A stretch of 64,000 nt of DNA, from sequence record PV933157.1; one strand, written 5' to 3'. Position 1 is the stretch's first letter. Every line of letters starts with the position of its first letter. This document shows positions 60,913 to 62,684 of the stretch, piece by piece. Origin of the DNA: Escherichia phage 24-32N. The notes beneath the pieces were generated by a model, which was given only the letters and a program-made list of their open reading frames with translations, was not told the DNA's origin and searched no databases. The translations under genes and the position numbers were made by a program.

Positions 60913-61203
60913 TTGAGAATCTATATGAGAGTCCAGGACTCTAAAGATGAATACAAGGAGCTAGACCACACTAAGACTGGCTTCCTTTCAGGTGATATTA
61001 TCATTACGCATGATGAAGACACCTATCATGAATTAGCTGGGATGATGCTGTTAGAGAATCGTCCTGGCATTAAAATCCTAGAACCAAGAGAAACTTACTC
61101 TTTAGAAAAGAGACCTTCAGCTCTTGTGTTCTTCACAAAATTACCTCATAGTGTCTCCGTCAGTCGAAGCAATGACAGTGTTCGGATGATGGTGACGATG
61201 TGA
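60913..61203 (+). CDS. Small early-like protein, member of a paralogous HE[LV]xG-motif family
   Basis: AGGAG upstream; motif HDEDTYHELAGMMLLENRPGIKILEP shared with three downstream ORFs. Confidence 0.45.
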   Translation: MRIYMRVQDSKDEYKELDHTKTGFLSGDIIITHDEDTYHELAGMMLLENRPGIKILEPRETYSLEKRPSALVFFTKLPHSVSVSRSNDSVRMMVTM

Positions 61204-61403
61204 TTAGTCATACCGCCTAGTAGACAGTGGCGGTACTCGTAAAGAGTTAATAACTTCTACAGTCAGGGTTACCCGGCTCCTTTCCTACCTAGTAGGCTAA
61301 CGATACACATGTATCTAGGGTGATGAACTGACCCGTGATAGAAAACGGTAAGGGGTAGAGTCGAGAGGCTCTACCCCATTTCTTTTTCAGGAGGTATGTA
61401 ACT

Positions 61404-61802
61404 ATGAGCATCTACGCTTTTGATATTGATATTACTGGAGTACTTCATAAGCAGGAACCCTATCTACTAGGGGAACCAGAAGTAGTAAGTAAGTTCATTA
61501 CCCCGTGGCAAACGGTATTCTTACCTGACTGCGAAGAGTCCCATGAAGTTATTGGTTCTCTTTTCCTATCCAATCTGCAACTCAATACTAAGATACTTAC
61601 TGAACCAAAGGTGTATGATCTTTCGTTTTACAGTGACTTTAGTATGATCTTCCCCGGTGTACGTTTCTATAAGATACCTGGTTGGGAATTGATAGCTGAC
61701 CATAATGTCTTTAATAAAACACTTTCCATTTACTTCAGACCTATTCCTAAAGGAAGGAGAATCAATCATGAAATTCATAATGACCGCCCCCAGTTTTATT
61801 AA
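61404..61802 (+). CDS. Small early-like protein, paralogous family member
   Basis: Motif DCEESHEVIGSLFLSNLQLNTKILTEP. Confidence 0.45.
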   Translation: MSIYAFDIDITGVLHKQEPYLLGEPEVVSKFITPWQTVFLPDCEESHEVIGSLFLSNLQLNTKILTEPKVYDLSFYSDFSMIFPGVRFYKIPGWELIADHNVFNKTLSIYFRPIPKGRRINHEIHNDRPQFY

Positions 61803-62082
61803 AGGGGAATTATTGTTTACAACTGACTTCACTTTAGAAGAAGTGATGAACAGCAGTCCCCAACGAGTAATACTGGTTCCTACTTTAGAAGATTATCATG
61901 AAGTAAGGGGTCAGCTATTCTTAGCTGGTTGTGACCGTAAGGTTGTATGTATCATTCCTCCCTCAGTATACACCGTTAGTTGTGCATATGATGCTCTACC
62001 TTTCATGATGATATCTCATGACTACCAGTGGGATAGTCGTCATGATAATGATGACTATCGTTACTACTATGTAAGGAAGTAA
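61768..62082 (+). CDS. Small early-like protein, paralogous family member
   Basis: Start at the ATG at 61768 with AGGAAGGAG upstream; motif TLEDYHEVRGQLFLAG. Confidence 0.45.
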   Translation: MKFIMTAPSFIKGELLFTTDFTLEEVMNSSPQRVILVPTLEDYHEVRGQLFLAGCDRKVVCIIPPSVYTVSCAYDALPFMMISHDYQWDSRHDNDDYRYYYVRK

Positions 62083-62085
62083 GTT

Positions 62086-62400
62086 ATGCACTTCTATGGT
62101 TTGAGCTATCGTAGTACCAGTCCCCTTAATCTGGGGGTAGGTAAATCTCATTGGATGAGAATAAGCACGCCTATGACCATGTACTATGAACAATGTGAAA
62201 AAGCGGATGAGTTCATCGGAACCTGCCTCATGTTGGGTGTACCTATTACCTTTATTAAAATAGATACTTCCATTGAAGTTCCAGAGAATGTAGTTGTATA
62301 CATCTACTCATCCTGTGAACCTATGGTAGTAACTACCCTTACGGGTAGACTTATTACCCTATATCCTTCTACCTCATATTTATCTAGCGACGGAGGTTAA
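62086..62400 (+). CDS. Hypothetical protein
   Basis: ORF track. Confidence 0.4.
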   Translation: MHFYGLSYRSTSPLNLGVGKSHWMRISTPMTMYYEQCEKADEFIGTCLMLGVPITFIKIDTSIEVPENVVVYIYSSCEPMVVTTLTGRLITLYPSTSYLSSDGG

Positions 62401-62402
62401 CA

Positions 62403-62684
62403 ATGGTATTCACTAAGATAAATAACACCATCTCTGTGCCAAGTTTTATACAGCATAGAAATATAGAGCAAATGGACGAGGTGCTTATCTTAGTTCCAGA
62501 TGAACAGTCCATGCATGAACTACAAGGCTTACTCTTCTTGCTTAATATGAAAACAGAAGTATATCTCCTTGAACCAGGTACACCTATGTCCTGGCAGGAT
62601 AGCTTCAGTCCGTGGCATCTCAATACAGACAAGTACATCCTATCCTTCGAGGGTAACACCCCCATCTACAAGGAAAGGCTATGA
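62403..62684 (+). CDS. Small early-like protein, paralogous family member
   Basis: Motif PDEQSMHELQGLLFLLNMKTEVYLLEP. Confidence 0.45.
   Translation: MVFTKINNTISVPSFIQHRNIEQMDEVLILVPDEQSMHELQGLLFLLNMKTEVYLLEPGTPMSWQDSFSPWHLNTDKYILSFEGNTPIYKERL

Follow-up and report, generated by a model that had tools for sequence, protein, structure and literature searches.

Small tandem paralogues at the right genome end of a Gamaleyavirus belong to one superfamily with N4 gp70 and gp71

Introduction

N4-like phages (Schitoviridae) are a large family, used in phage therapy, in which about half of the genes have no known function. When N4 infects a cell, its genome goes in left end first, and entry of the rest has to wait for synthesis of the middle transcription machinery; promoters for the virion RNA polymerase (vRNAP) are confined to this first-injected end (PMC4496689). 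The N4 middle promoters are described in a review as 'AT-rich, -7 to +2', with mapped sites in the left half of the genome. At the opposite end, between gp69 and the right terminal repeat, N4 carries gp70, gp71 and gp72 on one strand. A literature search found no functional study of gp70 or gp71.

A described counterpart by position is the rightmost array of the N4-like Pseudomonas phage LUZ7. It consists of 29 small ORFans (gp87-gp115), tightly packed and without known function, that lie on the same strand and at the same site, after the gp69-like gene, as the genes considered here, although the LUZ7 ORFs are shorter (40-75 aa). Mid-infection transcripts have been shown to cover this LUZ7 array. 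The present account concerns the corresponding end of a Gamaleyavirus genome, where an earlier note, made from the sequence alone, had described four diverged tandem paralogues with a common motif at what it took to be an early-gene position.

Genome setting

The window, the whole 64,000-nt stretch of DNA that was analysed, comes from a G7C/IME11-like Gamaleyavirus, an N4-like coliphage. Its end is the right physical end of the genome, as shown by an exact match at 63599 to the terminus sequence of IME11, which was mapped via terminus reads in the IME11 termini paper; the annotation of phage Mimir124 places the terminal repeat at the same location. The right direct terminal repeat (63599-64000) contains a copy of the vRNAP hairpin and a truncated copy of gp1. 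Eight small genes, designated A to H and all on the + strand, fill the space between the gp69-like (small-terminase-like) gene and this repeat, on the strand opposite to all late genes. Since the window ends at the right terminus mapped in IME11, the cluster has the place of gp70-72 in N4, at the far right of a linear genome with fixed ends and opposite the early region. The superfamily described below has the same placement in the window, IME11, Mimir124, N4 and the Achromobacter phage Axy12, and in every subfamily in which it has been found, the small-terminase-like gene is on one side of it and the right repeat on the other.

Gene A (60913-61203, 96 aa, phrog_7213) is the orthologue of N4 gp70; its TTG start aligns with the ATG of gp70 and follows an AAGGAG ribosome-binding site 6 nt upstream. 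Gene B (61404-61802, 132 aa, phrog_9160) is the orthologue of gp71 and has a C-terminal extension, and its end is overlapped by 35 nt by the start of gene C (61768-62082, 104 aa, phrog_11661). Gene D (62086-62400, 104 aa, phrog_12099) and gene E (62403-62684, 93 aa, phrog_16338) come next. Gene F (62681-62995, 104 aa, phrog_1365) is an interposed small protein outside the family, with a conserved HE[LV]NH...SEAY motif of its own. Gene G (62985-63323, 112 aa, phrog_12606) precedes gene H (63342-63476, 44 aa, phrog_19797), the orthologue of N4 gp72, also a non-member and the last gene of the operon. Isoelectric points across the cluster are 4.8-6.2. The strand, the placement and a structured spacer between the first two genes are common to N4 and the window phage. 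In contrast, N4 has two family members and the window phage about six, and an unrelated HExxH gene is inserted between the gp71 and gp72 orthologues in the window phage but not in N4.

Relatedness of the array proteins

Genes A, B, C and E, the four ORFs of the earlier note, exist exactly as it gave them. Their shared motif, written as HE[LVI].G.[LMF][FLM]L, a regular expression built post hoc from these same four sequences, has four matches in the six-frame translation of the 64 kb, all inside the four ORFs, against a mean of 0.005 in shuffled sequence (200 shuffles). The ORFs are under constraint as proteins: dN/dS is 0.08-0.57, typically about 0.2, and hundreds of orthologues are present in phage contigs of about 72 kb. 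These dN/dS values rule out a non-coding reading, and together with the shuffles they exclude chance similarity as the source of the likeness.

Several kinds of comparison bear out the description as diverged tandem paralogues. BLASTP among the eight cluster proteins links B with C (1.6e-6), A with E (9.7e-5), C with E (2.2e-4) and B with E (4.4e-4). In cross-matches to PHROG families, each protein reaches the family of another, in register. When alignments of orthologues are compared with hhalign, A-E, B-C and C-E score 82, 84 and 89%, giving a chain A-E-C-B with gene E as the central node of the similarity network; a profile comparison, which had been put forward as a way to refute the relationship, thus finds the four ORFs related. 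The H, E, G and L of the motif are invariant in a joint alignment of 59 Gamaleyavirus sequences. A joint family profile matches N4 gp70 (3.9e-7) and gp71 (1.8e-6) as well as Moo19 gp1, gp2, gp4 and gp6, which takes the family into other N4-like genomes, where the earlier note had suggested a search for the motif. By sequence profile A, B, C and E all belong to this gp70/gp71-like superfamily.

As the earlier note supposed, the motif corresponds to no described domain: there are zero matches in Pfam or NCBIfam, and the PHROG families that contain it have no assigned function. Sequence searches of Pfam, NCBIfam and the PDB with all eight proteins and with the N4, Moo19 and Axy12 homologues returned nothing meaningful.

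Further members of the array

The count of four proved incomplete, although the four members themselves are real. Gene D, missing from the earlier note, has a degenerated motif (ADEFIGTCLML), whereas its orthologue in Moo19, gp5, retains AHEFIGHCLM. Sequence profiles do not place D, which scores 1% against the family in hhalign. An AlphaFold model built from a separate alignment (pLDDT 86.7) has the same order of elements as E, and in Foldseek it matches proteins of the E, C, gp71 and G2 types. The fold comparison, with its predicted common fold, settles gene D as the fifth member.

Gene G is a probable sixth. Its motif, DFAQGHKLL, has lost the HE pair, and hhalign against the superfamily gives a borderline 46-55%. 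It matches G2 at 1.7e-9, and a paralogue of gene G in IME11, IME11_82 (K4MQ72), is matched by the E model (probability 0.95) and by the D model (E 2.7e-4). With D sharing the fold and G probably doing so, the array has about six paralogues. Genes A to E are real protein-coding tandem paralogues, and G probably is one as well.

Fold and motif

The array proteins are one small alpha/beta domain of about 90-130 aa. Among the window genes, models were built for D and E, from separate alignments. The E model (pLDDT 82) and the D model both begin beta-beta-alpha-beta-alpha-beta and continue into a beta-meander, with the motif on helix alpha2; for each protein, models 3-5 score far below the best one. 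The conserved core runs from strand beta3 through an acidic loop to helix alpha2 (HE-x-x-G-x-hydrophobic), then to strand beta4 and an (E/P)P. In Foldseek searches of BFVD, the matches of the two models coincide: they are small proteins from Schitoviridae that represent the E, C, gp71 and G2 types, with nothing confident beyond these.

Resemblance to RecA-like domain 2 of SF2 helicases, or to another Rossmann-like enzyme, was considered and rejected, as the scores fall below the level of homology and nucleotide-binding motifs are missing. Identity to this helicase domain and to periplasmic binding proteins is 5-14%, the helicase and ligand-binding motifs are absent from the array proteins, and the C-terminal beta-meander of the array proteins is absent from both of these groups.

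The HE pair is not kept throughout the family. In N4 the E has already changed (HY in gp70, HA in gp71); the position reads DE in gene D, FA in gene G, and YN, YY, HI or HN in remote members, with changes in seven remote cluster representatives. An invariant catalytic His and Glu, sought across the family as the mark of a hydrolase, was not found. Because the pair is changed in N4 gp70, gp71, D and the remote members, the motif is judged structural and not catalytic: it keeps the fold together and does not form an active site.

Transcription units and timing

The cluster is divided into two units. Gene A is monocistronic and lies between two hairpins, and genes B to H form a tightly packed operon. 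Hairpins of the form GGGGT..ACCCC occur three times in the 64 kb, every one in this cluster. One of them, GGGGTGAGATACCCC (60789-60803, + strand), lies in the spacer that separates gene A from the divergent gp69-like gene, is conserved in N4, and abuts a possible -35 box. The latter belongs to a weak sigma-70-like promoter candidate read by eye (60804-60832, + strand; TTGAAG-17 nt-TACACT), whose N4 counterpart, TTGCAG-17-TAGACT, has the same spacing. The candidate scores 8/12, under the scan cut-off, and neither unit has a convincing sigma-70 promoter in the consensus scan. The A-B spacer (61204-61403, + strand) is structured (fold z-score -4.4), shows compensatory changes relative to N4 at several paired positions, and ends in a predicted intrinsic terminator, with a stem at 61352-61377 and a T run, 26 nt before the start of gene B. 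After gene H, the hairpin GGGGTAGATAGTTACCCC (63477-63494, + strand), next to T-rich sequence, is the likely terminator of the B-H unit. Rfam has no match over 60600-64000.

The early-gene position claimed for the array does not hold, given its place at the right genome end and the absence of a vRNAP hairpin promoter upstream of it. The vRNAP hairpin (consensus xxxxGC-TCC-GCxxxx TATGGA, seen twice in the early region of IME11) occurs once in the window, at 63685-63699, a site within the terminal repeat that lies downstream of the cluster. The array genes thus do not qualify as N4-type early genes transcribed by vRNAP. Mid or late expression is inferred from the absence of an early promoter, the weak promoter-like site upstream of A, and the mid-infection transcripts of LUZ7, a distantly related phage with no detectable homologue of the array family. 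In a circularly permuted view the cluster would directly precede gp1 and the early genes and share their strand; right-end genes can pass for early genes in a permuted or end-truncated assembly, and the mapped ends show otherwise.

Evolution and distribution

The rapid evolution ascribed to the array is confirmed. Genes A to D are 62-95% identical to their counterparts in other Gamaleyaviruses, compared with 97-100% for the terminase genes, and omega is about 0.2 for A-D versus 0.01-0.03 for the terminase genes. The array genes therefore evolve about ten times as fast and yet are under purifying selection; at about 0.2, whole-gene omega gives no indication of an arms race. Across ten genomes the distal genes form a mosaic, and copy number varies between near-identical phages. 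Comparison with N4 suggests that in the Gamaleyavirus lineage additional diverged copies (C, D, E and G) came to occupy the gp71-gp72 interval, and comparison of isolates that the distal array has been reshuffled between them.

The domain is confined to N4-like phages. A search of 1.84 billion representative proteins gives only 20 clusters at E<=1e-3, and tblastn matches are limited to Gamaleyavirus, Moovirus and relatives. Both Enquatrovirinae and Rothmandenesvirinae retain A/gp70 and B/gp71. An iterated family profile detected no members in LUZ7, ort11 or Salmonella S5.

Possible roles

The preferred reading, with a probability of roughly one half, is that the right-end paralogues are accessory binding modules without enzymatic activity, made in the middle or late phase of infection. 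They would act as soluble, mildly acidic proteins, each paralogue lineage appearing to keep its own conserved C-terminal beta-meander, and for that reason each paralogue probably binds a different host or phage partner. The genes would be dispensable factors that tune infection of particular hosts, with counter-defence as one candidate role. The host-takeover or anti-defence function proposed in the earlier note is a plausible guess; sequence searches gave no annotated homologue that ties any member to a partner or a phenotype, and none of the N4-related phrases sought occurs in the CRISPRi-ART phage functional-genomics paper. A role as DNA mimics was dropped, the proteins being merely mildly acidic.

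Other explanations account for part of the evidence. The constant site between the small-terminase-like gene and the right repeat, and the conservation of A/gp70 and B/gp71 in two subfamilies, would suit proteins of phage DNA metabolism at the genome end, active in right-end replication start, concatemer processing or help to the terminase. For N4, the right end is said to be the preferred start of replication (PMC3896407, discussion), and the LUZ7 study proposed that the rightmost, mid-transcribed ORFans of that phage may have a part related to replication. However, the array proteins are mildly acidic and have no nucleic-acid-binding or nuclease signature, the variation in copy number and distal content between near-identical phages would be unusual for core replication or packaging factors, and members are undetected in LUZ7, ort11 and Salmonella S5; such a role is unlikely. 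It is still harder to see the proteins as small enzymes or metal-binding proteins that use the His/Glu pair and nearby acidic residues at the C-terminal edge of the sheet. The invariance of H and E in the 59 Gamaleyavirus sequences, their location where beta3 meets alpha2 in a Rossmann-like unit, which is a classic place for ligand binding, and the acidic loop before them would fit, but H or E is changed in gp70, gp71, D, G and the remote members, and no enzyme is matched by sequence or by fold, which makes this explanation quite improbable.

The remaining two explanations are very improbable. Genes for early host takeover, which the injected virion RNA polymerase would transcribe immediately, could well be small, fast-evolving ORFans, as many early genes are, and the permuted view would give these genes a suitable place; the anatomy largely refutes this, with the cluster at the end of a linear, fixed-end genome opposite the early region, the one vRNAP hairpin downstream of it, and vRNAP promoters in N4 restricted to the left end. 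Proteins of the virion or its assembly, produced along with the late genes, might be expected beside the late packaging and tail genes, which the cluster adjoins, and behind a sigma-70-like promoter such as the possible one upstream of A. The array is on the wrong strand for this, the Moo19 homologues gp1-gp6 are absent from the listed virion proteins found by mass spectrometry, and the variable copy number speaks against a structural part.

A wider form of this reading is doubtful, though it may be worth stating. The right end of Enquatrovirinae and Rothmandenesvirinae genomes would be a diversification locus, where one phage-specific alpha/beta scaffold, lacking a close match among solved structures, may have been duplicated and reshuffled, with each copy neutralising a different late-acting host factor; targets may include abortive-infection systems triggered by replication or packaging. 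If true, the last part of the genome to enter the cell would house a counter-defence arsenal, comparable in its logic with those that T-odd and T-even phages keep among their early genes and different in timing. Gamaleyavirus has been reported to be notably resistant to restriction systems, and the compact variable locus is an obvious place to seek host-range or counter-defence determinants in this genus.

Implications for annotation

For now the finding is mainly a clean-up of annotation and a pointer. PHROG families 7213, 9160, 11661, 12099, 16338 and 12606 each take one array gene (1e-34 to 1e-64) and stand as separate families without assigned function, whereas profile comparison and fold place them in one superfamily. 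With at least six PHROG families and N4 gp70/gp71 joined in a superfamily with its own fold, annotation is simplified in several hundred genomes. A related family, PHROG 30381, is found in Achromobacter phages, and proteins of Zuri, another Pseudomonas N4-like phage, show weak Foldseek similarity to the array models.

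Homology Among the Cluster Genes

The array is real and larger than was reported, and it consists of orthologues and expansions of N4 gp70/gp71. The cluster, near the right end of the window, comprises eight small plus-strand genes: A (60913-61203), B (61404-61802), C (61768-62082), D (62086-62400), E (62403-62684), F (62681-62995), G (62985-63323) and H (63342-63476). The four ORFs of the earlier note are A, B, C and E, all present exactly as given. The TTG start of A aligns with the ATG of N4 gp70, and AAGGAG, its ribosome-binding site, lies 6 nt upstream. Over 60700-64000, identity is 95.6% with Escherichia phage IME11 and 84-94% with other Gamaleyavirus genomes (G7C-like N4-like podoviruses).

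The shared motif, HE[LVI].G.[LMF][FLM]L, a pattern derived post hoc from A, B, C and E themselves, has four matches in the six-frame translation of the 64 kb, solely in these genes, versus a mean of 0.005 in shuffled sequence. The diverged paralogy proposed earlier for the four is backed by evidence independent of the motif. BLASTP within the cluster links B with C (1.6e-6), A with E (9.7e-5), C with E (2.2e-4) and B with E (4.4e-4). Each protein also weakly matches another's PHROG family with the register kept, and profile-profile comparison of orthologue alignments gave probabilities of 82% (A-E), 84% (B-C) and 89% (C-E). All 59 sequences of the joint alignment share the H, E, G and L.

Rapid evolution, also claimed before, is borne out. 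Compared with six or seven other Gamaleyaviruses, A-D show dN/dS of 0.08-0.57 (typically about 0.2) and amino-acid identity of 62-95%, versus 0.01-0.03 and 97-100% for the neighbouring terminase genes. The paralogues are thus under purifying selection while changing about ten times faster than their neighbours.

Relation to N4 and Distribution

A four-family profile, searched against 403 ORFs that included every ORF of the window, matches N4 gp70 (3.9e-7) and gp71 (1.8e-6) as well as gp1, gp2, gp4 and gp6 of the N4-like phage Moo19. PHROG assignment equates N4 gp70 with A, gp71 with B and gp72 with H, so that N4 has the order A-B-H whereas 24-32N has A-B-[C-D-E-F-G]-H. Across ten related genomes A-B-C-D is constant, and the distal array is a mosaic drawn from E (or a longer variant of it), F, G, H and another gene of the G type.

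The family is narrowly distributed. Among 1.84 billion representative proteins, searched exhaustively with HMMER, no more than 20 clusters reach E<=1e-3, and their proteins all measure 54-133 aa. Several hundred near-orthologues came from word-seeded searches, and those with a long contig on record sit on one of about 70-74 kb, as large as a Gamaleyavirus genome. With remote members as queries, tblastn against 50,697 phage records matched only Gamaleyavirus, Moovirus and close relatives. In Achromobacter phage Axy12 (Rothmandenesvirinae) an iterated profile picks up two ORFs at the right end; it has no match in LUZ7, Sinorhizobium ort11 or Salmonella S5. The right-end slot beyond the gp69-like gene holds 29 tandem ORFs of 40-75 aa in LUZ7, and tRNA gene clusters with small ORFs in ort11 and Salmonella S5. 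Schitoviridae in general appear to use this slot for accessory genes.

Predicted Fold and Additional Members

An AlphaFold model of E from the joint alignment (pLDDT 82, pTM 0.68) has the element order beta1, beta2, alpha1, beta3, alpha2, beta4, then three more strands, with the motif spanning the end of beta3, an acidic loop, alpha2 and beta4. The model matches Gamaleyavirus proteins, a 121-aa, N4 gp71-sized OLB145 protein, four Klebsiella phage KP8 proteins and several Achromobacter phage proteins; matches to Pseudomonas phage Zuri proteins are weaker.

By eye, D has CEKADEFIGTCLMLG at the position of CEESHEVIGSLFLSN in B, and its orthologue Moo19 gp5 retains EEAHEFIGHCLM. Profile comparison linked D to the gp70/gp71-like superfamily at 1% only, without confirmation. 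Since profiles alone failed, D was modelled separately, from an alignment of D orthologues only (pLDDT 86.7, pTM 0.76). The first six elements match E in order and spacing. Foldseek matched the D model to the PhAPEC5 E orthologue (probability 1.0), a 104-aa EC1-UPM protein taken as C-type, the OLB145 gp71-type protein (3.9e-5) and IME11 K4MQ72 (2.7e-4, TM 0.63). The last, also matched by the E model (probability 0.95), is IME11_82, a G-type paralogue to which G itself matches at 1.7e-9; G against the superfamily gave 46-55% alignment probability. These matches, with the element order and spacing, place the modelled D in the superfamily and make G a probable member. F and H are not members by profile comparison. 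The fold, as predicted, is phage-specific and currently unmatched.

The Genome End and Timing of Expression

In annotated relatives the cluster lies to the right of the terminase genes and the gp69-like gene, and to the left of a short direct terminal repeat. In IME11, where a repeat of 401 bp was mapped, the read from one end is GTGGCTGGGGCTACACCC... and that from the other terminus is the reverse complement of ...GAAGATTTCTGCAAAGATT (PMC3896407). The former matches exactly at 63599 and the latter is the final 19 bases of the window. The end of the window is thus the right physical terminus of a linear genome. Judged by these matches, 63599-64000 is the right terminal repeat. A gp1-like gene also starts in it, at 63743, and runs for 87 codons before the genome ends.

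The earlier note placed the genes at an early position, and this is contradicted. The N4-type promoter hairpin of the virion RNA polymerase (vRNAP), ACATGCTCCGCATGT followed by TATGGA, occurs once in the window, within the terminal repeat (63685-63699) and downstream of the cluster; this copy faces outward. A second copy with the same hairpin core is found in the IME11 early region. In N4, vRNAP promoters are found only at the left end, the first part to be injected, and the remaining genome follows only once middle-phase machinery has been made (PMC4496689). The cluster thus cannot be early in the N4 sense. The N4 middle start sites that have been mapped are in the left half of the genome, and late transcription proceeds leftward (PMC4496689). 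In LUZ7 the rightmost ORFan array is covered by mid-infection transcripts. Upstream of A there is a weak sigma-70-like site, TTGAAG-17-TACACT, conserved in N4; this candidate would fit late expression of A.

Motif Role and Possible Function

The HE pair is not kept outside Gamaleyavirus. At this position N4 gp70 reads HY, N4 gp71 HA, D DE and G FA; YN, YY, HI and HN occur in remote representatives. The features that remain are a hydrophobic strand, an acidic helix N-cap, a helix glycine, a hydrophobic face on that helix and another strand, which ends in (E/P)P. Replacement of HE with retention of these features argues against catalysis, and the motif is best described as structural. Each lineage retains its own C-terminal segment across large distances, for example SPWH(L/V)NTDKY in the E-type, FFT(K/R)(L/I)P.S(V/I)S in the gp70-type and H(N)VF(N)..(L/V)(S/T)(I/F)YFR in the gp71-type. 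Such a pattern fits a shared scaffold bearing binding surfaces that have diverged. The cluster proteins are soluble and mildly acidic (pI 4.8-6.2), and the Moo19 homologues are not among Moo19 virion proteins.

On the most economical reading, duplication would have diversified a set of accessory binding proteins that are not enzymes and are produced in the middle or late stage of infection. The main rival of this reading is a genome-end role in replication or packaging. Anti-defence, suggested in the earlier note, is a candidate role compatible with the variable, fast-evolving distal array. The locus matters mainly for annotation clean-up and as a defined target for experiments.

Hairpins, Spacer and Gene Packing

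Two hairpins flank A and a third lies 3' of H. The 64 kb contain three hairpins with the pattern GGGGT(A)...(T)ACCCC, versus 0.59 expected, all in the cluster: before A (60789-60803), between A and B (61352-61377) and after H (63477-63494). The first is conserved in N4; an ordinary terminator is ruled out there because no T run lies 3' on either strand.

The 200-nt A-B spacer (61204-61403, plus strand) is more stably folded than shuffled sequence by a wide margin (z -4.4) and is nearly invariant in sequence among Gamaleyaviruses. At its end is a canonical intrinsic terminator, 26 nt upstream of B. One predicted helix (alignment columns 34-77) has two-sided compensatory changes in N4 at several paired positions. 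The spacer, which has no Rfam match, may act as a structured leader or a processing site, or may yield a small RNA. In one record a minus-strand 38-aa ORF is annotated within it.

Genes B-H are tightly packed, with overlaps or few-base gaps. Overlaps are 35 nt for B/C (61768-61802), 4 nt for E/F (62681-62684) and 11 nt for F/G (62985-62995); gaps are 3 nt for C/D and 2 nt for D/E. This arrangement suggests translational coupling along a B-H operon.

Other Observations

F (104 aa) lies within the array yet is unrelated to it. It carries HE(L/V)NH, then SEAYCYYMD about 20 residues on, conserved in 5/5 orthologues examined, a combination that resembles a zinc-binding (gluzincin-like) HExxH...E motif in minimal form. 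F has no match in Pfam, NCBIfam or PDB, and its family, phrog_1365, is a PHROG of unknown function.

An apparently complete Gamaleyavirus region occurs inside two 'Enterococcus faecium' chromosome assemblies of 2.76 Mb (CP043865.1 and JAJAOK010000001.1), at about 2.70 Mb, with tailspike, terminase, the A-F array, gp1 and gp2. The almost certain explanation is contaminating coliphage sequence that was assembled into the chromosome, not a prophage.

The gp67-like gene for a 30 kDa virion protein (57756-58463, minus strand) adjoins the tailspike gene. Its identity to most relatives is just 62%, with synonymous divergence at saturation, versus 98% to Mimir124; the large terminase beside it is at 99%. 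The drop in identity marks a sharp recombination boundary of the host-range module.
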